Shown here: one piece after another, positions 1 through 16,351 of the stretch
Layout of the letters: each line of letters starts with the position of its first letter
Numbering within the stretch: the stretch's first letter is position 1
NCBI GenBank assembly: GCA_963816065.1
Contig: CAWFJG010000028.1
Location: 52,810-116,809, forward strand
Length of the DNA stretch: 64,000 bases
Source: an uncultured Alphaproteobacteria bacterium
GTDB taxonomy: Bacteria; Pseudomonadota; Alphaproteobacteria; Rhizobiales; Beijerinckiaceae
Direction of reading: 5' to 3'
Notes under the pieces: model-generated
Database searches by the model: none
What the model was told of the DNA's origin: nothing
What the model saw: the letters and a program-made list of their open reading frames with translations, nothing else
Position numbers and translations under genes: made by a program

Positions 1-346
1 CCCCCTGTTGCTTCGCGCACGATGATCGACAGGATTTTGGCAACCTCTACAACAATTCCGTTTCCGAGATTTGGAACAACGAGACCTACCGGTCGGCTCG
101 TCTGCTTTTTTCCAAAGGCACACGCGCTTCTGATCGAGTTGAGACAATTTGTGACAAATGCACGGTCTTTCGGCAGGACGGCGCGCACCTTTGCGGCGTG
201 CGTCCGGCCCGTGATGTTTTCCTTGAAGCACGGAGAGGCGCGGGGCGCCTATCGGTCTAACCGACGCTCCAATTGCTGACGCGAGTGGAGCTCACCCTTG
301 ATTCGTGCCAGAGACGCTATCCGGAACATCTTCATTTCACGGATCC

Positions 347-660
347 TTATGTCGACTGGATCTCTGGTTCTGGCCGGTGAGCGGTCTCGTAACACGAGAG
401 GCCCAGCTGCCGTTGGAGTTGGACCGCGGATACGCCGGGTGTTTGGCTGGCGACCAGATAGGCAGCCCAAAACCAGATGGACAACGGCGCGCGACTGCGC
501 TCCATGACCGTGCCGACAGTCAGTCCTGTCTGGCTTCGGCATTTCCGGCATGTCAGCACGCCCGGTCGGCTTGCAATGCGAAACGGCTCGCCGTTCTCCT
601 CGCAGCGCGGGCAGACGAAGCCACGCTCCCAGCGCGCCTTATTCGAGATATGCGGCGCTT
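347..660 (-). pseudogene. IS1595-family transposase N-terminal remnant (zinc-ribbon)
   Basis: Reconstructed minus-strand AAYLE/KARWERGFVCPRC...LTCRKCRSQTGLTVGTVMERSRAPLSIWFWAAYLVASQTPGVSAVQLQRQLGL is a typical IS1595 N-terminus; frameshifted near 641 and truncated. Confidence 0.8.
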
Positions 661-889
661 ACATAGAGCCCCATCGCAGCGGCAGTGGCGCGTGCTTGAA
701 GCTTGAGCACACGCGCTGCCCCGCGATCCGCAAGTCCGCCAGACGACGAGGATATCGACTGACTGTGGACCCGGTCCTAATTCCCCTTCGAAGCCAGTCC
801 ACACCGGCGCCTCAACTTCATCAAAATTAAGTCAGCGCCAATCTTGCACGCCGAAACACAGCCAGGGCGCTTACCACCAGCCCACGTGA

Positions 890-2017
890 CTAAGGAGACG
901 CTGTCGCAGCATGACACGGCCGCACCGGATCGCCTTTGCCGCAAGCGCTCTGCAAGGCGCGAATCCTCTCGCCCACCGCTATTGCCATGATCATATTGGA
1001 GAACTCGTTTGGGTGGCCCCTGCCGTGCAGCGCGTGGAGGTCTGCAAGTCCGACAAACGGAGTGAACAGGTCTCCGCTCAGGATGAGGGCGTCGCTGTTT
1101 TCTCGAAATTGGTTCCGCAAATCTAAAGGGATAGAAGCCAACAGCTCGGGTTCGGAGAGCTGCGGAATATCGACAATGATCAAGATCACGCCGTGCGAGT
1201 GGCAAAGCGCGTACAGCCGTCTCAACAGCGCTATTTGCAACTCGCGTTTGTATGAGCTCAGGGACGTGCCTATCGTGAACTCTGTCTCTCTCGCTTGTTC
1301 GGCGGAGCCAAGACGCGCCGATTTCGCGGCCTCCCACACGGTATTTACAGCAAAGGAATAGAAAAACGAATTTTGGCTCAACCACCGCAACAACGGGACA
1401 GAGTTTATGATATCGAGGGTCCGCACGCCCGGGATGTACTTCTTGTTTGCTACTACAAGCGAACTATTCGTAACTCGAAACAAGTCGCTCCTAACATTGT
1501 CATCGAAGTCGTTTCCGAAGAATCCGAGGACAACAGCGTCTGGCTGATACCTCATACCTTCGTTCTCCAGATATATCAACTCCTCCGCCGTTCCAAACCC
1601 GGACACTCCGGTGTTGAATACTTGTGCATTTATACCATTATTTCTCAGGTACCGCTCAAGCACTGCAGAATAGGTATAGTCCTGACGAACCTCGAATCCT
1701 TCAGTGGTTGAATCTCCAAGGGCTATGACACGAAAAACTCCGGGAGGTTTCTCAAGGTTGAAATCCTCATTCGAGCGGAACCCTTGGCTGTTCGTAGAAA
1801 ACTTCCAGCGCCCGTCCGGATCCGTATGCCAGAACTGATAATTCGGCCGCAATCGGCGGATTGTAAATTCGCCGTACGTTGCCCCTGTGTGGAAACGAGG
1901 AATCAGCATAATTTGATTGCCAAAGAATAGCCGGGTTACAATCTCGCACAACCCTAGGCAAACCAACGTCACCATCGTAAGCAGCGCTATGTTTACAGCA
2001 GCCCTTTTCACTTGCAT
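890..2017 (-). CDS. Membrane-anchored SGNH/GDSL hydrolase-like protein
   Basis: N-terminal TM helix; block I GDSTTEG, block II NTGVSGFGT, block III GFFGND, block V GHPN. Confidence 0.85.
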   Translation of the reverse strand: MQVKRAAVNIALLTMVTLVCLGLCEIVTRLFFGNQIMLIPRFHTGATYGEFTIRRLRPNYQFWHTDPDGRWKFSTNSQGFRSNEDFNLEKPPGVFRVIALGDSTTEGFEVRQDYTYSAVLERYLRNNGINAQVFNTGVSGFGTAEELIYLENEGMRYQPDAVVLGFFGNDFDDNVRSDLFRVTNSSLVVANKKYIPGVRTLDIINSVPLLRWLSQNSFFYSFAVNTVWEAAKSARLGSAEQARETEFTIGTSLSSYKRELQIALLRRLYALCHSHGVILIIVDIPQLSEPELLASIPLDLRNQFRENSDALILSGDLFTPFVGLADLHALHGRGHPNEFSNMIMAIAVGERIRALQSACGKGDPVRPCHAATASP

Positions 2018-2431
2018 CTCCGGAACAAACGGATTCGAGCCGCCCGGCTAGAGTTTCGCCAACCGGTCGAGAGCTTCAACACGGGCCAGTGCGCCGATCC
2101 AGGCCCCCAGCAGGAGGCCTACGCACCCGACGCCGAGACCCGCTAGCATAAACCCGGGCAGGGAAGTCGACCGAGCGCTCACCATTTCTCGTTGACGCCT
2201 CACACCATTGAACTCAGTTTCGGTTGCCTGCGCCGCCTGATCAACTGACGCCGCCTGAGATTGACCTCGATCGTCGAGATCGACCGGGCGACGACAGTCC
2301 ATAGCGCAATTTGAGGCGAGGCTGTATCGTTCCGGTCGTACGACAAAGCGAGGCCGCGGCGACAGCTTTGGCGTTCGGTGGGTTTCGATGCGCAATTCAA
2401 TTTCTGACCAGAGCGATGTCACGAGAACCCG

Positions 2432-3577
2432 ATGAGCCATGCCGGCGCGCCTACCCCCCAGGAGAAATCGTCTTTCGCAGGGAAGTTGGCCACATGGCTG
2501 CTGATTATCCCGTCAGCGGTCATTGGAATTCTCCTGGTCGAAGTGTTTTGTTGGCTGTTCGTTCCGTGGATCGGGTTGAACATCCCAGGGCGGGACAGTC
2601 GCGTCGTTTTCTTCGAGGGTCTCGGTCAAATATTCGAGAATCACGCAGATATATTTACCTATCTATCTGACAATAACGTCCGCAACGTGACCGCCTTTTT
2701 CAACAAGAATGACTATAATATCGAATACGATTATCGCTTTAGGACCAATAACCTCGGCCTCACGCAAAACGATGACGTCTTGACTGGAAGGAAATCGCTC
2801 CTGTTGCTCGGCGATTCCTTCACCGAAGGCCAAGGCGCCGAACCCTGGTTTGGGCTGACCGCTCCGGCGATCGAGACGCTCGGGTTTCAGCCCATCAACG
2901 GCGGAGTGCTGGGGACTGGGTTCGGCCAGTGGCTCAAACTTACCCGATATTTGACGGCCAAGGGGATTGATGTCCGAAAGATTGTCGTCATTTTTATTTC
3001 TGACGACTATCATCGCCCCGTTTGGAATATTACGCCTGAGGTATTTCATTGCCTTTTGGCGTCTTCGCTTTGCAGAGTTGACACCAGCTATTTCTATCAC
3101 TTGCCATCCGCGCAGGAATTGCCCTCCTGGATAAATCGGGTGAGAGTCGCCCGTGGTCCCTTAAGGCCCCAGCTTGAACCGCGCGCTGCGGCGCTGCTTC
3201 CGGCAACGTATTCCGTGTACATGTATTTCCGGCAGCTGCTCACTTTTGCAAAAGCCGAACGGCAGTCGCGCGTCGCCATCAGGGATCTGATTGCGACATA
3301 CGGTCCCGAAAACGTGGCGTTCCTTCAGTTGCCGCAGAAAGACGAACTCGATCGCGGTCCGGACAGTCTGGGGCTGCGGGCGCGACAGGCGATAGAGGAT
3401 GCTGGCGGGAAGCTATTCGACGGCTTCAAATTATGCGGACTGACCAAGGCCGACTACTATGAACACGACAACCACCCAAATCGGGCCGGCTACAGCAAAA
3501 TCGCGACATGCACAAAAACCGTGATAAATCATCTGGCCGCTCAGGGCATGGCCGTGCGCCGAGCCGCATCTGACTGA
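2432..3577 (+). CDS. Membrane-anchored SGNH/GDSL hydrolase-like protein
   Basis: N-terminal TM helix; LGDSFTEG, NGGVLGTG and DNHPN motifs. Confidence 0.8.
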   Translation: MSHAGAPTPQEKSSFAGKLATWLLIIPSAVIGILLVEVFCWLFVPWIGLNIPGRDSRVVFFEGLGQIFENHADIFTYLSDNNVRNVTAFFNKNDYNIEYDYRFRTNNLGLTQNDDVLTGRKSLLLLGDSFTEGQGAEPWFGLTAPAIETLGFQPINGGVLGTGFGQWLKLTRYLTAKGIDVRKIVVIFISDDYHRPVWNITPEVFHCLLASSLCRVDTSYFYHLPSAQELPSWINRVRVARGPLRPQLEPRAAALLPATYSVYMYFRQLLTFAKAERQSRVAIRDLIATYGPENVAFLQLPQKDELDRGPDSLGLRARQAIEDAGGKLFDGFKLCGLTKADYYEHDNHPNRAGYSKIATCTKTVINHLAAQGMAVRRAASD

Positions 3578-3813
3578 AGAGGACGGAGGGATCCCAAGGG
3601 CGATCGGATTGTCGGTGGGTCGCGCGAGTTTCACAGGGCTTGCCAGCGAACAACGACAGCTTATCATTGGTTTTAGACGTCCGATCGAGGCATCCGATCA
3701 TAGCCAACGGCGACGTCGTATCGCAAATGCTGCTGCTCTCAGCCGGTTACGCTATGGCAAGCAAAAGGAGATCAGGATTGGAGGCCCGTTCGCACGAGAC
3801 AGCGCCCCAGTTC

Positions 3814-4230
3814 ATGTCGCACGAGAAACTGGTCCGTCGCGACGACATCGTCGGCCCGTCGAATTGACGGTTCGGTCTGACGATCGGCGCGGCATGCATA
3901 GTCTTCTGGGGCGTTGGCCGCCTGCTCGGCCATAGCTATTCGGAATGGCTGCTGGGCCTGGGGCTTGTTAGCGCGCTGCTCGGCCTTCTGTGGCCAGCGG
4001 CGCTGGCGCCGCTCAATCGATTTTGGCTTAAACTCGGACTCGTCCTCGAAAGGGTCGTGAACCCGGTCGTCATGACGGTGTTGTTTGCTTCAGCGATCGT
4101 GCCGATAGGTGTCCTGCTGCGGCTGAGCGGCAAGGATTTGCTGCGTCTGCGCCGTGATCCGGATGCGGCAAGCCACTGGATCCCGCGGTCGTCCGGCCGG
4201 CCTACTGAATCAATGAACAATCAATTCTGA
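3814..4230 (+). pseudogene. SxtJ-family membrane protein with in-frame TGA at 3865-3867
   Basis: Reads MSHEKLVRRDDIVGPSN*RFGLTIG...LAPLNRFWLKLGLVLERVVNPVVM...PIGVLLRLSGKDLLRLRRDPDAASHWIPR...MNNQF, the typical SxtJ pattern; the stop is consistent with CGA>TGA. Confidence 0.8.
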
Positions 4231-4239
4231 CGAGGCGAC

Positions 4240-4389
4240 ATGTCATTCTTGATGGAGTTATGGTCATTCCTTAGGGCTCGCAAGAAATTCTGGCTCATTC
4301 CCGTGATGATTATGATCGCGGTCTTCGGAGGTTTGGTTGTGCTTAGCAGCGGGTCGGTTATTGCTCCTTTCATTTATACATTATTTTAG
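4240..4389 (+). CDS. SxtK/DUF5989-family 49-aa membrane micropeptide
   Basis: MSFLMELWSFLRARKKFWLIPVMIMIAVFGGLVVLSSGSVIAPFIYTLF*, GAGG RBS upstream, lies between sxtJ-like and the carbamoyltransferase; below the ORF-track cutoff. Confidence 0.9.
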   Translation: MSFLMELWSFLRARKKFWLIPVMIMIAVFGGLVVLSSGSVIAPFIYTLF

Positions 4390-4397
4390 GAATACCA

Positions 4398-6233
4398 TTG
4401 TTCGTACTTGGCATTTCGGCTTTCTACCACGACAGCGCCGCGGCTCTGGTCACGGATGGACGGATCGTCGCGGCCGCGCAGGAGGAGCGGTTCACCCGGA
4501 AAAAGAACGATTCCGGCTTTCCCCGGAGGGCCATCGAATACTGTCTCGACGAGGCGGCGATCGATCTCGGCGCCGTCGACTACGTCGTGTTTTACGAAAA
4601 GCCGTTCGTCAAATTCGAGCGCCTGCTCGAAACGTACTTGGCTTTTGCTCCCCGTGGCCTGCGGTCGTTTCGTATGGCCCTGCCGATCTGGATCAAGGAA
4701 AAGCTGTTTCAGAAGCGTCTGCTCCGCAAAGAGCTTGAACGGCTGGCGCCGGACTACGATTGGGAGAAGCGCCTCCTGTTCAGCGAGCACCACCAGAGCC
4801 ACGCCGCCTCCGCCTTCTTCCCCTCGCCGTTCCAAGAGGCCGCGGTGCTGACAATGGATGGCGTCGGCGAGTGGACGACGACGTCCTTGGCCGTGGGCCG
4901 TGGGAACGCGCTGGAGATACTCAAGGAAATTCATTTCCCCCATTCGCTTGGATTGCTCTATGCGGCGTTCACTGCCTATACGGGGTTCCGGGTGAATTCC
5001 GGGGAGTACAAGATGATGGGGCTGGCGCCCTATGGGGAACCGCGTTACATCCAGAAGATCCTCGACAATCTGATCGACCTGAAGCCGGACGGCAGTTTCT
5101 GGCTCGATCAGAGCTATTTCAACTATTGCACCGGGCTCACTATGACGAACAGGCGCTTTCACGCGCTGTTCGGCGGCGATCCGCGGGACGAGCATGCGCC
5201 GCTGACCCAACGCGAGATGGATCTCGCCGCCTCAATCCAGGCGGTGACCGACGAAGCCGTGCTCCGAATGACTCGTTCGATCGCCCGCGAGACCGGCGCC
5301 AAGAAGCTTTGCCTCGCAGGCGGCGTGGCCCTTAACTGCGTCAGCAACGGCAAGATTGTCCGTGACGGCAAGTTCGAAGACATTTGGGTGCAGCCCGCGG
5401 CCGGCGACGCGGGAGGCGCGCTTGGGGCGGCGCTCACCGCCTACCACCTCTATTCCAACCAGCCCCGCCTCCCACAAAGCGCGCTCGACGCTATGCAGGG
5501 TTCCTACCTTGGTCCCCAATTCGCGCAAACCGAAATCGAGCGGCGTCTCGACGCTTGCGGCGCGGTCTACGACGTGATGGCCGAGGAGGCGTTGATCGAG
5601 GCGACCGTTGGCGCGCTGATTGAGGAAAAGGCGGTCGGCTGGCACCAGGGGCGCATGGAATTCGGGCCGCGTGCGCTGGGAAACCGCTCCATTCTGGGCG
5701 ACCCACGCAGCCGGACGATGCAGAAGACTTTGAACCTGCGGGTCAAGTATCGCGAGAGCTTCCGACCTTTTGCGCCCTCCGTCCTGCGCGAAGACGTCGC
5801 CGACTGGTTCGATCACGACGGCGACAGCCCTTACATGCTGGTCGTCGCCGACGTTGCAGCGAAGCGCCGGGCGCCGTTGAGCCCAGACGACGCAGCCAGG
5901 GTGGGGACGGACAAGGTCAACGCTGTACGCTCGGAAATCCCGGCGATTACCCATGTCGATTATTCGGCCCGCCTGCAGACCGTTCATCGGGAGACAAATC
6001 CCCGCTACCATGCGTTGATTTCGGCCTTCAAGGCCAGGACCGGCTGCCCCGTGCTGGTCAACACCAGCTTCAATGTGCGCGGCGAGCCGATCGCTTGCAC
6101 GCCGGAAGACGCATTCCAGTGCCTGATGGGCACCGAGATCGAGGTGCTGGTGGTGGGCGATTGTTTTCTGCGCAAGGAACGGCAAGATCCGGCGCTGAAG
6201 CTCGACTACCGCAATGTCTTTGACCCGGACTAG
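4398..6233 (+). CDS. O-carbamoyltransferase (NodU/CmcH/TobZ/SxtI family)
   Basis: LGISAFYHDSAA, EERFTRKK, EHHQSHAASAF, DGVGE, GEYKMMGLAPYG, AGGVALNC, EFGPRALGNRS, KYRESFRPFAP, NTSFN. Confidence 0.95.
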   Translation: MFVLGISAFYHDSAAALVTDGRIVAAAQEERFTRKKNDSGFPRRAIEYCLDEAAIDLGAVDYVVFYEKPFVKFERLLETYLAFAPRGLRSFRMALPIWIKEKLFQKRLLRKELERLAPDYDWEKRLLFSEHHQSHAASAFFPSPFQEAAVLTMDGVGEWTTTSLAVGRGNALEILKEIHFPHSLGLLYAAFTAYTGFRVNSGEYKMMGLAPYGEPRYIQKILDNLIDLKPDGSFWLDQSYFNYCTGLTMTNRRFHALFGGDPRDEHAPLTQREMDLAASIQAVTDEAVLRMTRSIARETGAKKLCLAGGVALNCVSNGKIVRDGKFEDIWVQPAAGDAGGALGAALTAYHLYSNQPRLPQSALDAMQGSYLGPQFAQTEIERRLDACGAVYDVMAEEALIEATVGALIEEKAVGWHQGRMEFGPRALGNRSILGDPRSRTMQKTLNLRVKYRESFRPFAPSVLREDVADWFDHDGDSPYMLVVADVAAKRRAPLSPDDAARVGTDKVNAVRSEIPAITHVDYSARLQTVHRETNPRYHALISAFKARTGCPVLVNTSFNVRGEPIACTPEDAFQCLMGTEIEVLVVGDCFLRKERQDPALKLDYRNVFDPD

Positions 6234-6373
6234 GAATTGCAGCGTCTGTTCTCGCCCATCCGCAAGACGGCTTGCGAGCTTCGCAGGCTCGTTTCGGAGA
6301 CCGGCTTTTACCGCTTATTGGGCTCGTGCTACGTTGCAAAATGCGTAGCCACAATGTTGGAAAAACAATCGGA

Positions 6374-7669
6374 ATGGACACTGTCTCCATCTTCGACGTG
6401 GTGCGGCGCCGCTTATATTTGATTGTCGCGCTGTGCGCCGTGACGACCCTGGCGGGATACGGCGTTTCATTCTTCAAGCCGCTCATCCCGGTGAAATACG
6501 AAGCGTCCGCTGTCGTCTTGGTGCGACCTCACGAGCAGGTCAAGATCGGGCCGGCCGGTTCGGGCAAGGAGGTCTTGGACTTTCCAGTCGCGCAGACGCC
6601 GGTCGTCGAGTCCGCTTCCAAAACGTACATCCAGATCATCCAGAGTCCTGAGTTGATTGGCAAGGTCGTCCGTGAGCTCGGGTTGGACCATGAGCAGACC
6701 AGCCCAGTGGACCAGGATGCGACGCTGCTTGGGCGGTTTACTGCTTCAGTGAACAGAATATTTGAAGGCGTGAAACCATATATTAAGAATACCCTGTCGA
6801 TTATGAGATATGGTAAAGTCGTTGAAGATAATCCTTTCGACAAAGCCGTGGGCAGGATTGGTCGCGGGCTTACCCTAAAGGCATACGAGGACACTTATGT
6901 CTTCGAGATCAAATACAGCGATGCAGATCCACAGGTCGCTGCCGGCGTGGCCAACACGATCGCGAGGTTGTTCATTCAGTTCATGGAAGACATGCGGTCA
7001 TCGGAGGCTCAAGCTTCGGCAAATCGACTGGAGAGTCAGCTCGACGAGAGCCGGCAACGACTGGTTGACGCCCGCGAGACCCTGCAAAAATATAAGGAGG
7101 CCCATGGCGTTTTCCTGTACCAGCCCGAATATGATGAGAAACTGAAGGTCATTTCGGATTTGACGGTTGAGCTGGCGAAGCTGGATTCCGCTTATGCCAA
7201 CGAGAGTTTGGGAGCCAATACGATCGAAGCCACGACCTACGCCAAAAAGCGAGAGCGTCTCCTAAGGTCGCTTAACGAGAACCAGACGGCTTTGGCTTCT
7301 CTACCGATGGTCGAGCGCGAACTGCAGCTTCGGCAGGCGGACGTCGATGTCGCAAACACCGCTTACGGGACAGTGGCCAGGGAATTGAAGGACGCCGAGT
7401 TGAAGTTCGACTCCCTGCCGGAAGCGCGGTTGATCTCTCCGGCCTGGGTTCCCGACGTGCCGAGCCGCCCGCGCCGCGACGTCATCGCATTGGTGTCCCT
7501 GGTGGCTGGGTTGCTGGCCGGAGTCGCGCTGGCCTTACTCCTCGAGTACTTCAATCGAACGGCGCGCGGGGTCAGCGATATCGAGACCTTCGTCGGCCTG
7601 AAGGTGATCGGCACGATCCCGGAGGTCGCCCTTGGTCTGCCGCTCGACCGCGACGTGGGTCGGCTTTAG
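6374..7669 (+). CDS. Wzz/GumC-type polysaccharide co-polymerase (no kinase domain)
   Basis: Two TM helices flanking a coiled-coil periplasmic region; PxxPSRP before TM2; GLKVIGTIP tail; start set at ATG 6374. Confidence 0.85.
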   Translation: MDTVSIFDVVRRRLYLIVALCAVTTLAGYGVSFFKPLIPVKYEASAVVLVRPHEQVKIGPAGSGKEVLDFPVAQTPVVESASKTYIQIIQSPELIGKVVRELGLDHEQTSPVDQDATLLGRFTASVNRIFEGVKPYIKNTLSIMRYGKVVEDNPFDKAVGRIGRGLTLKAYEDTYVFEIKYSDADPQVAAGVANTIARLFIQFMEDMRSSEAQASANRLESQLDESRQRLVDARETLQKYKEAHGVFLYQPEYDEKLKVISDLTVELAKLDSAYANESLGANTIEATTYAKKRERLLRSLNENQTALASLPMVERELQLRQADVDVANTAYGTVARELKDAELKFDSLPEARLISPAWVPDVPSRPRRDVIALVSLVAGLLAGVALALLLEYFNRTARGVSDIETFVGLKVIGTIPEVALGLPLDRDVGRL

Positions 7670-7880
7670 GGACGAGGCCCTCCCATCGACGAAGACGCCT
7701 AGATTCGCTGTCAACCGAAATGCTCTCGAAATGCGGTTGCGCGAGCCGAGACGAAGCGCAAAGCGGTCGAAGCCGCTGAACTTGGACGCCAGTTTCGACA
7801 TGGCGACGGATGCGCCTCCCGTGCTGGCGCCGGAACCGGTCGCAAGCTAGCCTGACGCAACTTGGGAGCGGGATCGAGTT

Positions 7881-9704
7881 TTGAAGCTGATCAAGCAATT
7901 ATGGTTTGTCCTTACGCCACGCGAAAGAACGGAGGGCGGGCTTCTCCTCTGCGCGATGGTTTTCGGCGCCTTGCTCGAGACCGTGAGCATAGGCGCGGTT
8001 CTTCCATTCATCGCCGTGCTCAAGGAGCCGGAGATGCTATCAAAATCGGCGCACATGGCGCCGATTCTATCGCGCTTGAAGGGCAGTTCGCCGCAGGAAC
8101 TGGTCTTTAGCCTCGGTTTGACTTTAATCATCCTCTTCGCAATGAAGACCAGCTACCTCGTCTTCTTGTATCGTTGGCTCTTTGGCTATTCCATGAGGAA
8201 GCAGGTGAGCCTCGCCCGCCAGTTGCTCGCTGGCTATCTGGCGGCGCCCTATATCCTGCATCTGCAGCGCAACAGCGCCGAACTGATCAGGGTGACGACG
8301 CGGTCGGTAGAGGACTTCGCCAACATTTTCCTGGTTAATCTGCTCATTGCTCTAGGTGAGTTTTTGGTTCTGGCGGCGCTTACTGCGTTGCTGATGGTCG
8401 TCGCACCCATGGAAACGCTTGGGGCCGTCGTGGTCCTCGGTCTTCCAATCGCGTTGATTTACCGGGTGACGCAGGCTCGCTTGGCAAAATCAGGACGTAT
8501 CGCCGAAGAAAGTTTCGGGCTCATGATTTAGTGGGCCGAGCAGGCGCTCAACAGCGTGAAAGAGATCACCATAACAGGCCAACGCTCATTCTTCATAGAC
8601 CAGCACAGCTTTAACGTCCAACGCTTTACCGATGGGCTGCGCTCAGTGACCTTCTTTAATACGGCTCCACGTTTTCTCATGGATACGTTGGCCGTGGCTG
8701 CAATGGTCGCAATTGCAGCGATTCTCCTGGCGCGCGGGCAGGACCTGCAGTCGAGCCTGCTGTTCCTGGGAATGTTCGTCTTGGCCGCCTTTCGGCTGAT
8801 ACCTTCCGCGAGTCGCTTGAGCGGCGCCCTTTCGCAGCTTCGCTACCGCTATGCATCGACCGAGGTGATCTATCATGAACTGCTCGCTCTGCGGCAACAG
8901 CCATCGGACGCCCCGGCCGGCTCCGCCAATGAGCAAGTATCGCCAATTCCATTCCAGCGGGGGCTCAAGGTCGAACACCTGGTTTATTCGTATCCCACAA
9001 TGCATAAGGCGGCGATCGATGACATATCGCTGGAAATTCCAAAAGGCAGTTGGGTTGCGCTGATCGGGCCGACCGGCGCCGGCAAGACCACGCTGGCTGA
9101 TCTCATTTTAGGGTTTCTCACTCCGAGCTCGGGCAGAGTCCTTGTTGATGGCCACGATCTGCGCGACAACGTCGGAGGCTGGCAGCGAAATATCGGATAT
9201 GTTCCGCAGAGCGTCTATCTGATCGACGACACGATTCGGCGCAATGTCGCCTTTGGCGTGCCGGAAAACGAGATTGACGAGGAGCGCGTGTGGCAAGCGC
9301 TTCGCGCCGCACAGGTTGATGCGCTCGTTCGCTCGCTCCCAGGCGAATTGACTGCAATTGTCGGTGAGCGCGGCGGCCGTCTTTCAGGGGGGGAGCGCCA
9401 ACGACTGGGAATTGCGCGCGCTCTGTACCGCGATCCGGAGGTCCTTGTCATCGACGAGGGAACCGCCAATCTGGACCATGCGACGGAAGCGGCAATTGTC
9501 GAGGTCATCGGCGGACTGAGAGGCAAAAAGACAATCATCGTCATCGCGCATCGGTTGGCTTTTGTGAGAAACTGCGATTGCATATTCATTCTCGATCAGG
9601 GGCGCATTCGCAATTCTGGCCGATATGCGGACCTGCTCTCGAGAGACCCCGCGTTTCTCGGGTCCTCTTACGAGGCGCCGTCGACTTCCGCCTTAGAAAA
9701 CTAA
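7881..9704 (+). pseudogene. ABC exporter permease/ATPase (MsbA/PglK/HepA-like) split by in-frame TAG at 8529-8531
   Basis: ORFs 7881-8531 and 8556-9704 share a frame (GLMI*WAEQALNSVKEI); Walker A GPTGAGKT, LSGGERQR signature, IIVIAHRL. Confidence 0.85.
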
Positions 9705-9758
9705 CGAAAGCGGGTAGCCTGGGCTTGACCAGCCGACAGCCTGTCAGCGATTGGCGTC

Positions 9759-10700
9759 TCAGGCCGAAGGGGTCAAATTTCTTTCCATGCGCCCAAGGAA
9801 GCCGTCGCGAATACCCAGAAAACACGCCCGTATCTTCGCCCCGCGCTGGCGTTCGATCAGAACGATCCCGCCAAGCGTCGTCGCCAGCCTGAGGCAAAAC
9901 CAGAAAGTCAGGGATGGCCAACTTCGTCGAGGGTAAAGGCGCAGCCAAAAGAACAGAAGATTTCTGAAATAAAGATACCGGCGAAAAGCCGAATGGTTGG
10001 TCGTCCGGACGTCAACGCCCAGGAGCCGCCGATGCAGAGGATCGCCCACTCGGTGTTCGATCACGCAATCGCGATGCGCGAGGACCTTGTATCCCGCCTT
10101 CCGTATGCGGAACGTGTACTCCATATCCCCGTAGTCCATCGAGAGATCTTCCCAGCAGCCATGTTTGCCGACCCGGGGCAAGCCCACGTCCGCCACGACC
10201 GCGACGTTGATCAAAGCGCCGCTCCACATAACGGCATCGCAATCGATCGCTGCGCCCGGTCCCACCCGAGCGTGCCGAGGCCCGCCCGGGGTCAGCCGAC
10301 GGCCGCGGTCCAACGGTCCCCGATTGAGGAGGTCGTGAGAAGGGCTGACCACGCCGACGTCCCGATCCCAGTTCGGCCCGCTAGACCTCAACATTTCGAT
10401 CAGCAACGCAAGGATGTTCGGGCCGGGCCGCGTGTCGGCGTCGATCAGCCAGACCCAATTGTATCCGTGCGCGCGGGCAAACTCTAATCCGGTGGCGAAA
10501 CCTCCGCCGGAGCCCAGATCGACCTTGTTCCGCACGATGGTGGTCTTCGGAGAAAAATCCAATTCGTCGAGTCCGTCCGTCGAGGCGTTATCGACGAGAA
10601 CAACCCGTTCAACGGGCGCTGTCTGACAAAGAATGGCTTCAATTGTCCCACCGACGATATCGGCTTCATTATAGCACGTAATGGCTGCGAGGATTTTCAA
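9759..10700 (-). CDS. Glycosyltransferase family 2 (rhamnosyltransferase-like), inverted paralog
   Basis: VDNASTDG, WLIDAD and WSGALI motifs. Confidence 0.9.
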   Translation of the reverse strand: MKILAAITCYNEADIVGGTIEAILCQTAPVERVVLVDNASTDGLDELDFSPKTTIVRNKVDLGSGGGFATGLEFARAHGYNWVWLIDADTRPGPNILALLIEMLRSSGPNWDRDVGVVSPSHDLLNRGPLDRGRRLTPGGPRHARVGPGAAIDCDAVMWSGALINVAVVADVGLPRVGKHGCWEDLSMDYGDMEYTFRIRKAGYKVLAHRDCVIEHRVGDPLHRRLLGVDVRTTNHSAFRRYLYFRNLLFFWLRLYPRRSWPSLTFWFCLRLATTLGGIVLIERQRGAKIRACFLGIRDGFLGRMERNLTPSA

Positions 10701-10924
10701 GCGCGTGCACTCGGTCCGATTTTGGCGCCATCCTAAAGCTGACGTCCGCGGAATCGACTGTCAACGTCAGCCATCGCCTGGAGGGGATAAATCGGAATTG
10801 AAGCTATCGCTGTGACAAGTGGACATTCGAGGAGGACCAGCCCATAATTCCGACCGGGACGTTGAGGGGAAGGCGCTTTTTGGCGATAGAATTGGTGGGA
10901 AAGCGTAGAAGCGCCACGCAATTC

Positions 10925-11620
10925 ATGCTCGCGCAAATCATGCTCGAGCAACCGGACGTCGCGGATTCGTACGACGAACTCCTGCTCGATTTACGGCTTT
11001 CTCCGCCTTTGGCGGCGGGGAACTCGCTTTTGGTGACCAGCACGGCTCCGGACGAAGGCAAGACGACGGTGTCATTATGCCTGGCGCTCACCGCCGCGCG
11101 CGCAGGACAGAAGACGCTGCTGATCGACGGCGATCTGCGACGCTCGTCGTTGACGGCTTCACTTGGAAGCGCCGACGGCTTGGGTCTTATCGAATTCCTT
11201 TTGGGTCAGGCCGAGGCCGCGGAAGCGATCCGTCCTCTTCGGACGTTGGAGACTGGGGAAGCCGCGGGCGTCAGCTTCATGCCGTCGGGCGGCAAACCGG
11301 CGACCGCGCTCGCGGCCGTGGACTGGTCCAAGGCGCGAGCGGCATTTCAGTCAATCTCGCAACAGTTCGATATCGTGCTGTTGGATTCGCCGCCGGTCCT
11401 GGCCGCCAACGACGCGCTGCTGTTCGCCAGAATTGTGGATGCGGCGCTGTTGGTGGTGGGGACAGGAAACGCCAATCTCGACGAGATACGGCGGGCCAAG
11501 GAGCAGTTGGGCGCGGTCGGGACACCGATCCTGGGCGCGGTTCTCAACCGTTTCGAGCCGAAGGTCCATGGACCCTCGAAAAGGCCCTACAGCGGCTATT
11601 ACCGCCGAACTCGGACATGA
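10925..11620 (+). CDS. CpsD/CapB-family stand-alone tyrosine kinase
   Basis: TSTAPDEGKTT Walker A, LIDGDLRR, LLDSPP, C-terminal YSGYY tyrosine cluster. Confidence 0.9.
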   Translation: MLAQIMLEQPDVADSYDELLLDLRLSPPLAAGNSLLVTSTAPDEGKTTVSLCLALTAARAGQKTLLIDGDLRRSSLTASLGSADGLGLIEFLLGQAEAAEAIRPLRTLETGEAAGVSFMPSGGKPATALAAVDWSKARAAFQSISQQFDIVLLDSPPVLAANDALLFARIVDAALLVVGTGNANLDEIRRAKEQLGAVGTPILGAVLNRFEPKVHGPSKRPYSGYYRRTRT

Positions 11621-11725
11621 GCGAAGCCGGCGGCAGCGTCCGGTGGACCGGCCTCCCCATTGGCTCGCCGAAGCGATCCCCTGCGCCGTTCAAGGTCCAG
11701 GCGTGATCGCCAATTCACGATTCTC

Positions 11726-12697
11726 ATGCGCGTCCTAGCCTATATCCACACGTTCAATGACGCCGACGTCATCGAAGGGACGCTCGATGCGGCGCGCCGT
11801 CAGACGCGGCCTCCCGACGCCGTTCTTCTCGTCGACAACGCGTCGACCGACGGAACGCTGGATCGGACGTTTCCCGACGGGGTCGAAGTGGTCCGCAACC
11901 CAAGCAATTTGGGCAGCTGCGGGGCGATTGGAGTTGGCCTTCGCTACGCGTTGGAGCATCAGTTCGACTGGATGTGGATCCTGGACGCCGACAGCGTCCC
12001 GGACCCGGAGGCGCTGGCGACGTTGCTCGACCTCTTCGCCAGCTTTCCAACCAAACGGCGGGAGGAGACGGGCTTCATCGCCTGCCTGCCGCTGGACCAA
12101 TCCATGGATCAACAACCGGTTCACGGCCTCGTCTTCACGCGCCACGGACGGATGGTCGTCGACGCGACGCCAGAGCAGCGGGTCTACGAGTGCCATATGA
12201 CAATCTGGTCCGGAGGCTTGTACCGCCTGGCGGCAATCCGGAACGTCGGCATTCCCAACCCGGATTACTTCGTTGATCGCGGTGAACTGGAATACATGTA
12301 TCGCATCATGAAGGCCGGCTACAAAGGCTGCATTCATCAGGACGCCATCCTTAGACACAACATCCGCGGCGAGCAAAGCCTGACCCCGACACGAAAGAAG
12401 CTGGGTCCCATTACGCTAACCTTCTACGATACCGCTCCTTTCCGCTGCTACCTGACGTGCCGAAACACACTTTATTTCACATTGTACGACATGAAGGATG
12501 GCCGTTTGGCGAAAGTACGCGAACTGTTTCGCGTGCGCTCCAGGCCGGGGCGTGGCGTAATGAGCGGGGTGGGCTGGCAGGCGGGTCTGTTTACGCTGAA
12601 CTTCGCACTCCGTCCTATGACCCACGGCGCGCACGTTCGCGCCTGCCTTCGCGGCGTCTGGCATGGAATTACCGGGAATATCGCAGCCCGCTTCTAG
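11726..12697 (+). CDS. Glycosyltransferase family 2
   Basis: MRVLAYIHTFND start, VDNASTDG, WILDAD. Confidence 0.9.
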   Translation: MRVLAYIHTFNDADVIEGTLDAARRQTRPPDAVLLVDNASTDGTLDRTFPDGVEVVRNPSNLGSCGAIGVGLRYALEHQFDWMWILDADSVPDPEALATLLDLFASFPTKRREETGFIACLPLDQSMDQQPVHGLVFTRHGRMVVDATPEQRVYECHMTIWSGGLYRLAAIRNVGIPNPDYFVDRGELEYMYRIMKAGYKGCIHQDAILRHNIRGEQSLTPTRKKLGPITLTFYDTAPFRCYLTCRNTLYFTLYDMKDGRLAKVRELFRVRSRPGRGVMSGVGWQAGLFTLNFALRPMTHGAHVRACLRGVWHGITGNIAARF

Positions 12698-12904
12698 GCA
12701 GATTCCGTTAGCCGGCCCAACGAAGGGGCCGAGTTCGAAGTCGACTGTCCCCGCTCGGGGCGCGAAGGACCCAAGGAACGACGGGCGCTTGGCGCGTCTT
12801 CGGGGTTCCTTCATGGTCTTTGTGATGAATTCGGTCTCGCTTGTCCGTTGCCCAGCTGGCCAATTGCAACCCGAGCGGGCTCCGTTCCACGGCCCGTTTC
12901 ATCC

Positions 12905-12978
12905 GCCTGGTTTTGCCTGTTTCGAGCCTGATAAGTGCCTGTTAACGACCTGTTCCGAGCCTGTTCGAGTGGCCTGCT
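12905..12978. repeat. Phased (G/A)CCTG direct repeats, about 11-bp period
   Basis: CCTG starts at 12906, 12916, 12927, 12938, 12949, 12960 and 12973. Confidence 0.6.
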
Positions 12979-13351
12979 CCAGGCCGCAACTGTTTGGTTG
13001 CATGATTGCCAGAGCCATGAAATTGCTGGAGTTTTTGGAATGGCCGGAATGGAGCGCCGGCCCTGGCGAAAAAAACCGCCCTGCTAGCAGGCAAACCGGA
13101 TCGGGCCGGTCCGGGCGATAAAGCCCCCGAGCACGGGCTTTCGGGCGCCCACTGGCGCAAGGGCGTTCGCATCTCCGCTCGACCACGCCATCCATCACGC
13201 CGTCGCCGACCTCAACCGCGAGCGCAGCCCCTATCCGTTGGCCAAGCCCCAGAGTCTCTGCTTAGTTGGGCTGACGAGCGCGGGAAACCTTCGCGGCGGT
13301 CATTTGGTCGCTTCAACCCGGACTTCACTCTTCCTTACTTCGGCGGCACAG

Positions 13352-14278
13352 ATGCGCGTCTTGGCCCATATCCACACGATGAACGACGAAGCCGTGATCG
13401 AACAGGCGCTCGAAGGGCTCCGGAGGCAGACACGACCGCCTGACGCCATCGTGATCGTCGACAACGGCTCGATCGATGCGACCTTGGACAGGACCTTCCC
13501 CGAAACCGCCACGCTCTATCGAAATCCAAGCAATCTCGGCACGAGCGGCACGATCCGGATTGGTTTCGAACACGCTCTGCGTCATGGGTTCGACTGGACC
13601 TGGGTCTTTGACGCGGACACGGTCCCAGAGCCCGACGCGCTCGAAAAACTGCTCGCCTTCTACGAACATCTGCCCGCGGCGAAGCAAGAACGCGTCTGCT
13701 TTTTGATCGGTTGGCCGCTGAACAAATCCGGGAAGGCCAAGCAGCCAGCGATAACTCTCTCAGCCGGAAAGCTGGAGTTCAAACCGCTGGATCCCGCTCG
13801 CGCCTTCACGGAATGCGACTGCATACTCTGGTCCGGAGGGCTTTTTCGCATGGCGGCTGTGGAGCGAATTGGCCTCCCGTCGGCCGACTATGTCCTCGAC
13901 ATCGCGGAGATCGAATATGGCTACCGCGCCCGGAAAGAAGGCTTTACCAGCTTTGTCGTTCACGACAGCGCCATACGCCATGACGTCGGCCGGCCGCCCG
14001 GAGCCCCGCCGCGGCGCTACCAATTCGGGCCGATCCGCTTTGTCTCGAATGAGACGCCCCCGATCCGCACGTACTACAGCGTCCGAAATATGATGTATTT
14101 CTGGTTGCACCAGCATAAGCCGCCCCGTGTCCTTCGGCCGCTGCGCTGGACCGCGTGGCGCGCGATCTTGCTGACGCTGAACTTTGCGGCGGACCCGCGC
14201 CGTCACCACGCGCAAATCTCCGCCTGCTTTCGCGGCGTCTGGCACGGCCTGACTGGCGACATTGCGAAGCGCTACTGA
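13352..14278 (+). CDS. Glycosyltransferase family 2
   Basis: MRVLAHIHTMND start, VDNGS, WVFDAD. Confidence 0.9.
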   Translation: MRVLAHIHTMNDEAVIEQALEGLRRQTRPPDAIVIVDNGSIDATLDRTFPETATLYRNPSNLGTSGTIRIGFEHALRHGFDWTWVFDADTVPEPDALEKLLAFYEHLPAAKQERVCFLIGWPLNKSGKAKQPAITLSAGKLEFKPLDPARAFTECDCILWSGGLFRMAAVERIGLPSADYVLDIAEIEYGYRARKEGFTSFVVHDSAIRHDVGRPPGAPPRRYQFGPIRFVSNETPPIRTYYSVRNMMYFWLHQHKPPRVLRPLRWTAWRAILLTLNFAADPRRHHAQISACFRGVWHGLTGDIAKRY

Positions 14279-14418
14279 TCCAGCGCGCGTTTCCGGCTTC
14301 GCTTGACGCGGCGTAGCGCGCTTAGTTAGGTACGTTGGCAACCTGGACGAATTGGCGGCCGCCGCCGCGATCCCCAGGGTTCGGCTGGGCGCAGCCGACC
14401 GCGTTTGGGGGTCTGGCA

Positions 14419-15333
14419 ATGCGCGTTCTGGCCCACGTCCACACTTTCAACGACGCAGCGGTGATCGACAGGGCGCTCGACGCGATCCGGCGCCAGACCC
14501 GCCCGGTCGACGCCATTGTCGTCGTGGACAACGCTTCGACGGACGGAACCCTCGACCGGAGCTTTTCGGAAGACGTCGTCGTCCTTCGAAATCGTACGAA
14601 TTTGGGCATGGGCGGCGCCATTGGGGTCGGGTTCTCCCACGCTCTCGAACAAGGATTTGACTGGACCTGGGTTCTCGACCCCGATGGCGTTCCAGAGCCC
14701 GACGCGCTTGAGAGACTGCTTGCATTTTTCGAGAGTCTGTCGCCCCAGCAACAGGAGCGAGTCGACTTCCTGGCCTGCCGGCTCGTCTCGGGCGGCAGCG
14801 GCCACCACCCGATCCTGTTCACTGGCTCAGGCCTGGAATACCTACCGAGAGACTATGACAAAACCATCCAATGCGATTGCTTCTTGTGGTCCGGTTCTCT
14901 ATTTCGGATGGCGGCTGTGAGAAAAATCGGACTGCCGTCGCCGGACTATTTTGCGGATCTGTCTGAGCTTGAATACGGCTTGAGGGCGAGGCAGCTCGGT
15001 TTCACCGGGTATATTGTCAGCGACAGCGCATTGCATCACAACGTCGGACGAGCTCCCGGAGCCAAAGGAAGGACCCTACGGTTGGGGCCTTTTTCCCTGC
15101 CGCTGTTTAAATCCTCGCCGTTGAGAGCCTATTACTATTCACGCAATGTACTCTATTTTTGGTTGCATGAATTCCGTCCCTATCGACCGCGCTGGGTGCT
15201 CCGAAGCATGGCGCACGCTTTTGTCTTCACGAGCGGCTTTGCGCTCCGGCCCATCAGCCACCGCCGGCATCTGGCGGCTTGCTTGCGCGGAGTTTGGGAT
15301 GGCCTGACTGCGCACATCGAGCGTCGGTACTGA
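14419..15333 (+). CDS. Glycosyltransferase family 2
   Basis: MRVLAHVHTFND start, VDNASTDG, WVLDPD. Confidence 0.9.
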   Translation: MRVLAHVHTFNDAAVIDRALDAIRRQTRPVDAIVVVDNASTDGTLDRSFSEDVVVLRNRTNLGMGGAIGVGFSHALEQGFDWTWVLDPDGVPEPDALERLLAFFESLSPQQQERVDFLACRLVSGGSGHHPILFTGSGLEYLPRDYDKTIQCDCFLWSGSLFRMAAVRKIGLPSPDYFADLSELEYGLRARQLGFTGYIVSDSALHHNVGRAPGAKGRTLRLGPFSLPLFKSSPLRAYYYSRNVLYFWLHEFRPYRPRWVLRSMAHAFVFTSGFALRPISHRRHLAACLRGVWDGLTAHIERRY

Positions 15334-15430
15334 CCTTTTGTTGTCAGCCTGCGTCCTCCAACTCTGAACTCAGGCGCCCGTCAGGCAGCGTGTCGAGGAG
15401 CACGCCCAGCGATCGTAGGAACATTGAGGT

Positions 15431-16351
15431 ATGCGCGTTCTCGCCCACATCACCACGTTCAACGAGGCTGAGTTCGTCGACCAGGCTCTGAGCGCGCTCC
15501 GCCGTCAGACCCGCCGGCCAGACGCCATCGTCATCGTCGACAATGGGTCGACCGACGGAACCGTCGACCGGCAGTTTCCGGAGGACGTCGTCGTCATCCG
15601 CAACTCCGAGGATCTCGGCGCAAGCGGCGCCATCAGAATGGGCTTCTCCTATGCCTCCGAACACGGTTTCGATTGGACCTGGGTGTTCGACGTGGACAGC
15701 GTTCCGGAGCCCGACGCACTCGAAAACCTGCTAGCGTTCTTTGAACAGATGGCCCCGTCGAAACGGGAGCAGGTCTGCTTCTTGGCCTGCCGGCTCGCCG
15801 GCGGCAACGCGGCCGGGCACAAGCCGATTGTGCTGACGGAGTCGGGTTTCGAATATGCGGCCACCGACGTTGGGGCCAGCTTTTGCAGCTGCGACTGCTA
15901 TATCTGGTCGGGCTCGCTGTTCCGGATGCCGGCGGTAACGAGGATCGGGCTGCCGTCAGCTGACTATTTCATGGATCTGGCGGAGCTCGAATATGGCTAC
16001 CGGGCGCGGCGCCTGGGCCTGACCGGCTATATCGTCGACAATAGCGTCCTCCACCACGATGTCGGCCGAGCCCCCGGCGTCACCGCGAAAATGTGGCGTT
16101 GGGGGCCTTTGTCCATCAAACTCATCGAAATGTCCCCGTTGCGATGCTACTACCACATACGGAACCTGATTTATTTTTGGCTGCATCAATGTCGTCCTTA
16201 TCGGCCTCGCTGGGTCATTCGCTCCATCCTTCATGCTCTGACCTTCCCGAGGACGTTCGCAGTCCGTCCAATCAGCCATGGCGAACATCTGCTGGCCTGT
16301 TTCAGGGGCGCCTGGGACGGTCTGACCGGGAACATAGAGCGTCGATACTGA
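15431..16351 (+). CDS. Glycosyltransferase family 2
   Basis: MRVLAHITTFNE start, VDNGSTDG, WVFDVD. Confidence 0.9.
   Translation: MRVLAHITTFNEAEFVDQALSALRRQTRRPDAIVIVDNGSTDGTVDRQFPEDVVVIRNSEDLGASGAIRMGFSYASEHGFDWTWVFDVDSVPEPDALENLLAFFEQMAPSKREQVCFLACRLAGGNAAGHKPIVLTESGFEYAATDVGASFCSCDCYIWSGSLFRMPAVTRIGLPSADYFMDLAELEYGYRARRLGLTGYIVDNSVLHHDVGRAPGVTAKMWRWGPLSIKLIEMSPLRCYYHIRNLIYFWLHQCRPYRPRWVIRSILHALTFPRTFAVRPISHGEHLLACFRGAWDGLTGNIERRY

Follow-up and report, generated by a model that had tools for sequence, protein, structure and literature searches.

Gene content of the locus

The window, by which we mean the whole 64,000-nt stretch of DNA analysed here, carries a peptide of 49 residues (4240..4389, forward strand) that a preliminary description had singled out as unannotated, with a basic RARKK patch, one transmembrane helix and an APFIYTLF-COOH end. 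Translation bears out both the patch and the end, a single hydrophobic span is found at residues 17-35, and the peptide spans all 49 positions of the Pfam profile DUF5989 (PF19451; SxtK; E 2.4e-24, 85.6 bits with the cut-off at 27). The N-terminal tail has a net charge of +3 and the C-terminal tail has none, a pattern which predicts an N-in, C-out orientation, as in DltX, instead of the cytoplasmic C-terminus that would have spoken against the role proposed below. SxtK therefore has the form of a DltX-like acyl-shuttle microprotein, being a single-pass peptide of ~50 residues with an FxYxxF end and an invariant tyrosine (motif as defined in PMC12148441).

As had been described, the peptide lies between an SxtJ-like gene and an O-carbamoyltransferase gene of the NodU/TobZ type, and Pfam matches on both sides agree with this. 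The carbamoyltransferase, SxtI (4398..6233, forward strand, 611 residues), has the two domains of the NodU/CmcH/TobZ family, Carbam_trans_N (Kae1/ASKHA-like, 2.7e-108) and Carbam_trans_C (YrdC-like, 1.6e-72), with a partial match to the NCBIfam NodU equivalog that falls under its cut-off (144 bits vs 1000), and no hydrophobic span was found in it. On the other side sxtJ (3814..4230, forward strand) matches the family claimed for it, PF19588, on 3868-4227 (4.6e-08, 34.2 bits against a cut-off of 24.4, profile positions 7-99 of 99), but its frame, previously passed over without comment, is broken at 3865-3867 by an in-frame TGA which separates 17 codons from the following 120. The likely start is at 3814, and past the TGA the next start codon comes only at 4057. 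An intact orthologue in the same-genus relative G012, where the order SGNH2-J-K-I is retained, reads GPSNRRFGL where the window reads GPSN*RFGL; the remainder of the window copy is free of frameshifts and 63% identical to it.

The two membrane-anchored SGNH proteins reported upstream are both present, each with one N-terminal hydrophobic span. SGNH1 (890..2017, reverse strand, 375 residues) matches Lipase_GDSL_2 at 9.3e-10 and belongs to the SGNH/GDSL superfamily, with S103 of the GDS motif, G140, N169 and H335 invariant in 57 homologues; its AF2 model (pLDDT 89.5) has an N-terminal helix, at residues 2-32, and its homologues span phyla at 44-77% identity. Among solved structures it comes closest to ordinary SGNH esterases and to CgnD, and DltD, PatB and AlgX are absent from its top 50 structure matches. 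SGNH2 (2432..3577, forward strand, 381 residues, span at residues 22-40) lies directly upstream of sxtJ on the same strand and has a GDS motif, with a weaker match to Lipase_GDSL_2 (residues 126-354, 1.3e-4) that is below the Pfam cut-off.

Downstream, domain matches substantiate the polysaccharide genes that had been noted: the region 6272..16351 encodes a Wzz/GNVR protein, an unassigned 216-residue ORF, an ABC ATPase, an AAA_31/CbiA protein and five GT2 glycosyltransferases, at a GC content of ~0.56-0.61 vs 0.63 for the whole window. This locus is likely the acceptor pathway. The claim that the window has no MBOAT or acyltransferase-3 (AT3) gene also stands, as profile matches across the genome place its one MBOAT (contig C29) and all seven AT3 matches on other contigs, and an MBOAT encoded with an SGNH partner is thus not found in the 64,000 nt.

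Conservation of the SxtK tail

Comparison of the DUF5989 C-terminus with the DltX and AlgI-type motifs, which the preliminary description had suggested as a check, came out in favour of its reading. Amongst the best 150 of 2,758 DUF5989 family representatives 128 end in the motif, and 18 more carry the motif followed by read-through sequence. In a motif-blind sample, where peptides from Acidobacteriota, Nitrospirota and others were picked by their adjacency to sxtJ and the tail was left unused, all 59 end in [AG]PF[ILV]Y[TAP][LIV]F-stop, with both the tyrosine and its exact C-terminal position invariant; phenylalanine replaces the tyrosine in neither of the two aligned samples. The same tail is found on bacterial MBOATs, with 26 of 30 alphaproteobacterial MBOAT frames ending xF[IL]YFxF and several ending GVAPFIYFQF, and a profile-profile alignment of the peptide with MBOATs joins the last 12 columns alone (P 2.8e-5). 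Within this genome, F[ILV]Y..F termini occur in 2 of 93,548 stop-to-stop frames of at least 35 residues, these being SxtK and the single MBOAT. The FxYxxF-type tail of bacterial MBOATs carries the acyl group, the tail tyrosine of PatA having been proven to carry acetyl to its SGNH partner PatB, and the tyrosine of DltX carries D-Ala (PMC12148441). The N-terminal half of SxtK is conserved to the same degree, with W8, R14, K16, W18, L19 and P21 invariant, and the tail therefore need not be the sole functional element.

SxtJ has ~140 residues. Only W70 and P96 are invariant, no invariant or conserved histidine that might be catalytic is found in the alignment, and a fold search returned no significant match, MBOAT and AT3 included. 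The earlier suggestion that the carbamoyl group passes via SxtJ thus finds no evident conduit, and a step across the membrane is one that we purely infer.

Genomic linkage

J-K-I forms a unit in ~75 of 80 loci, with gaps of ~10 nt, and the gene orders seen are J-K-I, J-I-K, I-J-K and J-K-SGNH-I. The SxtJ family occurs in 58 of 201 Acidobacteriota and 36 of 151 Nitrospirota genomes sampled, or about a quarter, and in many Proteobacteria. An SGNH gene lies within 400 nt of the cassette in 40 of the 80 loci which, against ~12 such genes in the whole 6.4-Mb genome, is an enrichment of roughly hundred-fold. SGNH genes are absent from 23 of the 80 loci despite good flanks, and 18 of 20 acidobacterial loci lie instead among rplI, dnaB and alr, only ~2 of the 20 having an SGNH gene nearby; the link is facultative, not obligate. 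Among Acidobacteriota an SGNH1-like match is found in 49 of 58 genomes having the cassette and 25 of 143 without it, counts which ignore phylogeny and genome size. Near DUF5989 genes an MBOAT is found in 4 of 80 loci and an AT3 in 1 of 80, and in two loci the peptide accompanies MBOAT and SGNH genes in the absence of sxtI or sxtJ. The co-occurrence that had been anticipated is therefore seen as frequent adjacency to SGNH genes and rarity of MBOATs, but not as a fixed association.

A homologous peptide (DUF5989, 27.3 bits) precedes an AT3 gene and an SGNH gene in this genome, and in 7 genomes of the genus its stop overlaps the ATG of the AT3 gene, with the SGNH gene next. SGNH genes adjoin SxtK, the single MBOAT and the AT3-coupled peptide alike in this genome. 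To judge from the AT3-coupled relative, the shuttle peptide may be modular; no description of a separate tyrosine-tailed peptide paired with an AT3 was found in the literature that could be searched.

Comparison with known systems

The module resembles the Dlt pathway of teichoic acid D-alanylation (DltA, DltC, the MBOAT DltB, DltX and the SGNH-like DltD) in that the activating enzyme is cytoplasmic and adenylate-forming, the ~50-residue microprotein crosses the membrane once, N-in/C-out, and has an FxYxxF end, and the SGNH-type partner is membrane-anchored and extracytoplasmic. It differs in having neither MBOAT nor carrier protein, with the small SxtJ, for which no significant fold match was found, in the place of DltB, in its carbamoyl rather than aminoacyl ester chemistry, and in its Gram-negative hosts; SxtK itself is outside the DltX family (PF12459), as a Pfam scan at E <=0.1 gives DUF5989 alone, and no DltX chain was found in a PDB sequence search with a profile. 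PatA/PatB, AlgI/AlgJ/AlgX and other MBOAT-SGNH O-acetylation systems share the tail (in several alphaproteobacterial MBOATs as far as VAPFIY), together with an SGNH neighbour and an envelope-polymer context; their tail, however, is fused to the MBOAT and their donor is acetyl-CoA, whereas here it is a free peptide beside a carbamoyltransferase, and these pathways are without a DltX-like microprotein (PMC12148441). In OatA/OafA-type O-acetyltransferases, too, a tyrosine relays the group between a membrane acyltransferase and an SGNH domain (PMC12148441); in OatA the carrier tyrosine lies within the AT3 domain instead of in a separate DUF5989-like peptide.

Saxitoxin clusters of cyanobacteria contain sxtI-J-K-L, where sxtL is a GDSL-lipase homologue whose product was first proposed as a decarbamoylase (PMC2679770). 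The same four families (carbamoyltransferase, SxtJ, SxtK/DUF5989 and GDSL/SGNH) occur in the window, although in a different gene order, with an interrupted sxtJ, and amid the polysaccharide genes of what appears to be an alphaproteobacterium rather than in a toxin cluster.

A proposed tyrosine relay for carbamoyl groups and its alternatives

Since SxtK adjoins a carbamoyl-adding enzyme and has the tyrosine tail of acyl relays, it may carry carbamoyl to a surface sugar polymer. We would anticipate that SxtI forms an activated carbamoyl group in the cytoplasm, because enzymes of the TobZ/NodU type are known to do so, and that SxtJ and the N-terminal half of SxtK may dock it at the membrane. The invariant tyrosine of the periplasm-facing APFIYxxF-COOH tail would then accept the carbamoyl as an aryl carbamate and transfer it either to the catalytic serine of one of the anchored SGNH proteins or straight to an acceptor, so that it would end on the polysaccharide of the neighbouring locus. 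The gene set, invariant tail, predicted topology and genomic links are established, and to these we add the carbamoyl-tyrosine and the membrane crossing as our proposal, for a membrane carbamoylation machine on the logic of Dlt and PatA/PatB; we found no paper making it, and regard its chances as evenly balanced. Of the relay as originally conceived, the tail, the topology and the SGNH enrichment have held up, whilst the SxtJ conduit has found no support, the SGNH link is facultative, and the window copy of sxtJ is interrupted. Carbamoyl-serine enzymes usually turn over slowly, as is seen with carbamate inhibitors of serine hydrolases, and this counts against a relay.

SxtJ and SxtK could instead be only tethers or activators that keep a soluble carbamoyltransferase on the membrane's inner face, so that lipid-linked or nascent glycan would be carbamoylated directly there; the substrate in saxitoxin producers would be a small molecule, the tail's part would be in packing or in contacts with lipid, and the SGNH genes would be ordinary esterases or transferases of polysaccharide loci. 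It is in keeping with this that enzymes of the NodU and TobZ types modify their acceptors directly, that J-K-I is so tight a unit, often amid housekeeping genes with no SGNH gene, that the cytoplasm-facing half of SxtK is invariant too, and that SGNH1-type genes are found in polysaccharide loci lacking the cassette (4 of 6 distant homologues lie in such loci without any DUF5989 gene). Tethering does not account, however, for a tail across the membrane that stays unchanged to its last residue from phylum to phylum and is identical to the one proven to carry acyl groups in MBOATs (PMC12148441), nor for the coupling of a homologous peptide to paired AT3 and SGNH genes or the enrichment of SGNH genes beside the cassette, and we think it rather unlikely. 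The tail might also be a docking signal rather than a carrier, recruiting or regulating an SGNH decarbamoylase or esterase so that addition and removal of the group are balanced, as would suit the first proposal for SxtL (PMC2679770) and the hydrolase folds closest to SGNH1. Complex prediction, which had been suggested as a further check, lends weak support to a contact between SGNH1 and SxtK, which would suit the relay as well (score 0.37, the best of 3 controls 0.00; at least 50% contact agreement between runs, partner pLDDT of at least 65). Of 80 solved complexes 58 attained the mark, as did 2 of 110 mismatched pairs, but only 7 of those 80 did so with a score of 0.60 or below, whereas both of the mismatches did. 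A docking signal need not keep a hydroxyl-bearing tyrosine invariant, yet phenylalanine takes its place in neither aligned sample, and the MBOAT and DltX precedent is for covalent carriage (PMC12148441); this explanation appears improbable.

Whatever the family does elsewhere, the carbamoylation module is probably impaired in this genome because of the premature TGA in sxtJ, and there is a little less than an even chance that the locus is a decaying remnant without present function. The distance from the TGA to the next start codon fits decay, as do the copies in the relative G018, one of which has lost sxtJ and SGNH2 with K and I intact whilst in the other K is intact but only half of J and 107 residues of I are left, and the scarcity of strong DUF5989 matches in the genus (3 of 25 genomes). 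Against it, none of K, I, SGNH1 and SGNH2 is disrupted, sxtJ is otherwise free of frameshifts, the stop is followed by C, and UGA-C is a leaky context, and the TGA could be an assembly error or a strain variant.

Implications

The TGA in sxtJ, the decayed copies among relatives within the genus, the invariant tail and its match to MBOAT tails, its restriction in this genome to SxtK and the one MBOAT, the counts of SGNH linkage and the AT3-coupled peptide are new here. To our knowledge, SxtJ and SxtK have been without a function since the saxitoxin cluster was described. If the tail tyrosine carries carbamoyl, this would be a route of extracytoplasmic carbamoylation that needs no MBOAT and the first use of a tyrosine shuttle for a non-acyl group, and it would be open to simple experiments by way of a Tyr-to-Phe exchange, a synthetic peptide as carbamoyl donor and the +43 Da shift in mass. 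More tentatively, with roughly one chance in three in our estimation, DUF5989 may be a general trans-acting tyrosine shuttle of Gram-negative envelopes, served by two or more kinds of loader, among them a carbamoyltransferase with SxtJ and AT3 acyltransferases, and delivering to anchored SGNH enzymes. Were this so, the DltX principle would extend beyond MBOATs, and from acyl esters to carbamates, and SxtJ, SxtK and SxtL would each be assigned a role.

The cassette and its surroundings

The gene set reported in the preliminary description, namely a small SxtK peptide, SxtJ, a carbamoyltransferase, two SGNH proteins and polysaccharide genes, with neither of the membrane acyltransferase families MBOAT and AT3 encoded in the window, was confirmed. 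The sxtK gene (4240-4389, + strand) has 49 codons and matches Pfam DUF5989 over its full length (E 2.4e-24); its product contains the basic patch RARKK and terminates in APFIYTLF, in which the tyrosine is Tyr46. Upstream of it is sxtJ, matched by the Pfam SxtJ model at 3868-4227, and 8 bases 3' of it starts a sxtI-type gene for a carbamoyltransferase of 611 residues, in which the two Carbam_trans domains are both present and a hydrophobic span is lacking. SGNH1 (890-2017, - strand) and SGNH2 (2432-3577, + strand) are SGNH-type genes whose products each have one N-terminal hydrophobic span, and downstream of the cassette lies a polysaccharide locus with Wzz/GNVR, an ABC ATPase, an AAA_31 protein and five GT2 glycosyltransferases. 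The sole MBOAT match of the genome and all seven of its AT3 matches are on contigs other than that of the window. The first part of the window (1-11000), which covers the SGNH genes, the sxt genes and the first of the polysaccharide genes, has a GC content of ~0.51-0.60 compared with 0.63 for the whole window, and its SGNH genes have a GC3 below 0.70; the low GC fits a horizontally acquired surface-polysaccharide island.

Conservation of the SxtK tail

SxtK has a single hydrophobic span (residues 17-35), an N-terminal tail with a net charge of +3 and a C-terminal tail of 14 residues without a charged side chain, a distribution from which the positive-inside rule predicts an N-in, C-out topology. 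It had been proposed that the tyrosine in this C-terminal tail carries a carbamoyl group to an SGNH serine, from which it passes to an exported glycan, a reading that would be undermined were the tyrosine not conserved. With a threshold of E 0.001 the DUF5989 family counts 2,758 representatives, and among the best-scoring 150 of these the motif forms the C-terminal end in 128 and is followed by apparent read-through sequence in another 18. The 80 genome loci that were retrieved had been found with a pattern that included the tail itself, and therefore a motif-blind test was added, in which 64 loci were located via SxtJ in Acidobacteriota, Nitrospirota and three other genomes and were searched with a peptide profile without its last nine columns. 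The peptide was present in 59 of these loci and in all 59 it ends [AG]PF[ILV]Y[TAP][LIV]F followed by a stop; distant members on Kiritimatiellia-type contigs have diverged elsewhere and retain APFIYTLF. The objection that the tyrosine is not conserved therefore fails.

Apparent J-K and K-I fusions in public protein sets (P0008 and P0392) have W exactly at the stop position and are probable miscalls in which TGA was read as Trp; they were rejected as fusions, so they have no bearing on the topology of SxtK, and they could mislead surveys of domain architecture.

Comparison with MBOAT, DltX and AT3 loci

DltX carries the motif FxYxxF at its C-terminus, which is extracellular, and PatA and other bacterial MBOATs end in it too; the tyrosine of the motif carries the acyl group to an SGNH partner, and MBOAT-SGNH pathways outside Dlt have no DltX-like microprotein (PMC12148441). 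A tail like that of SxtK, xF[IL]YFxF, ends 26 of 30 MBOAT frames from 29 alphaproteobacterial genomes (several as GVAPFIYFQF). The Pfam DltX model did not match the SxtK peptide, and when PDB sequences were searched with a profile of the peptide, the result was chance matches to transmembrane helices such as those of DsbB and no DltX chain. A look-alike search of a protein atlas gave no usable match. Profile-profile alignment of the SxtK family with MBOATs was confined to the C-terminal 12 columns (P 2.8e-5, probability 74%); what the two have in common is a motif and not the ancestry of the whole peptide.

Within the genome, F[ILV]Y..F is found at the C-terminal end of only 2 of 93,548 frames, SxtK and the single MBOAT. 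The latter (G000:C29:481534-486900, outside the window) ends SPFLYFKF and has directly 3' of it two or three frames matching the SGNH model, so that it looks like a classical AlgI/PatA-type module. Another contig, also outside the window, carries a three-gene module (L107:5246-7867, equivalent to G000:C30:470245-472866) in which the gene of a DUF5989-like peptide, with NAPFVYAPAP at its end, precedes an AT3 acyltransferase gene and an SGNH ORF (Lipase_GDSL_2 9.1e-11) comes third. The peptide is ~55 residues long, scores 27.3 bits against DUF5989 and has an end of the general form LFALAGQTxNAPFVYAPxx, and its stop overlaps the ATG of the AT3 gene (ATGA) in seven genomes of the genus. A reverse search with a profile of these AT3-coupled peptides recovered ordinary DUF5989 peptides, and in 200 genomes of the order no member of the AT3-linked subfamily turned up beyond the genus, the remaining matches being ordinary DUF5989 peptides. 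With this peptide the genes of the genome with a PF[ILV]Y tail number three, the others being the MBOAT and SxtK, and each has an SGNH gene within ~2.5 kb.

In the 80 loci an MBOAT lies near the SxtK peptide in four and an AT3 gene in one; all four of these MBOATs have a tail of their own. Two of the four loci, L051 (7449-11280) and L098 (9998-14586), combine a DUF5989 gene with an MBOAT ending FIYFDF and two or three SGNH genes, while sxtI and sxtJ are both missing within 10 kb. The MBOAT of L098 appears to be frameshifted.

Linkage to SGNH genes

The 80 loci are mostly from Alphaproteobacteria (L182, from an unpublished genome, was excluded from all counts) and J-K-I varies little among them, its genes being separated by ~10 nt. 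Named strains with an intact locus include Reyranella aquatilis KCTC 52223, Azorhizobium oxalatiphilum CCM 7897, Marinimicrococcus flavescens and Ruegeria atlantica. The orders J-K-I, J-I-K, I-J-K and J-K-SGNH-I were all seen, and this variability argues for selection on the gene set. The expected linkage between the cassette and SGNH genes was found in part. An SGNH ORF is at most 400 nt from the cassette in 40 of the 80 loci and at most 3 kb away in 46, which is far above chance given the background of about a dozen SGNH genes in the 6.4-Mb genome of the window; against this, 23 loci with good flanks have no SGNH gene, their neighbours including RsmB, RlmN, alcohol dehydrogenase, ThyX and heparinase-like genes. 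When six distant homologues of SGNH1 were examined in turn, two proved to adjoin the cassette and four to be in polysaccharide loci without a DUF5989 gene. In Acidobacteriota the cassette mostly lies between rplI and dnaB/alr, and an SGNH gene is nearby in only 2 of 20 loci and absent from the other 18.

On a genomic scale, 41 relatives were compared, and SGNH1-type matches occur in 3 of the 9 that have the SxtK peptide and in none of the 32 that lack it. In Acidobacteriota an SGNH1-like match is present in 49 of 58 genomes with the cassette compared with 25 of 143 without, a raw count that ignores phylogeny, genome size and completeness. Many of the acidobacterial matches span the core SGNH blocks only. 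The link between SGNH genes and the cassette is strong but facultative. In the acidobacterial loci L236-L255 the I-J-K cassette repeatedly stands between the gene for ribosomal protein L9 and those for DnaB helicase and alanine racemase, a housekeeping setting which hints that its role is a core one in the envelope and not an accessory one tied to polysaccharide.

The GDS serine, Ser103, and the histidine of SGNH1 are kept in all 57 aligned homologues, and its model is confident (pLDDT 89.5). The nearest solved structures to this model (me14f60658c10) are CgnD and ordinary SGNH esterases, the best being CgnD (8a2n) with a score slightly above those of generic esterases; CgnD is a slow hydrolase of the crocagin cluster, among whose other products is a carbamoyltransferase, CgnI (PMC10070186). 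That SGNH1 is closer to DltD, PatB or AlgX than to ordinary esterases was unsupported by the structural search. Modelling of SGNH1 with SxtK, which the preliminary description had looked to for a docked tyrosine, gave weak support, with a score of 0.37, whereas none of three controls scored above 0.00; at least 50% of contacts agree between runs and partner pLDDT is at least 65. In calibration 58 of 80 solved complexes attained the mark, as did 2 of 110 mismatched pairs, but both mismatches and only 7 of the 80 complexes attained it with a score of 0.60 or below.

SxtJ and decay of the cassette

In the SxtJ alignment only W70 and P96 are invariant and there is no invariant histidine; the conserved elements are PLNRLW, [NS]P and a basic tail ending NQF. 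An AF2 model (pLDDT 86) shows three helices, of which the final one is 44 residues long, and this leaves the predicted topology ambiguous, and Foldseek with this model found no match at E 0.001 or better, so that a likeness of SxtJ to MBOAT or AT3 cannot be claimed. Given these features, no path for carbamoyl from cytoplasm to periplasm is evident.

The sxtJ frame of the window is interrupted by a TGA at 3865-3867, 17 codons past the likely start at 3814, and a frame scan after the TGA found no ATG, GTG or TTG before 4057. At this site a genome of the same genus, G012, reads GPSNRRFGL where the window has GPSN*RFGL, and its SGNH2-J-K-I row (L209) is intact. A second, G018, has two copies (L210/L211), one with SGNH1, K, I and Wzz in which J and SGNH2 are not detectable, and the other a remnant in which K is intact, J is reduced to a half and 107 residues of I are left. 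The interrupted sxtJ and these partial copies indicate that the module is decaying in the genus, and that of the window may be impaired. The copies are at differing stages of decay and SxtK is intact in every one.

Relation to known systems

No paper containing 'DUF5989' and none connecting SxtK with DltX was found in the literature searched. The module belongs to the sxtI-J-K-L gene set (PMC2679770) and is of like logic to the Dlt and PatA/PatB relays, yet is a member of neither, differing from them in having no MBOAT, no carrier protein and no homology to DltX, and in the group handled. For PatB, an acetylated FIYANF peptide has been used as the donor. We put the probability that the SxtK tyrosine carries carbamoyl as evenly balanced.
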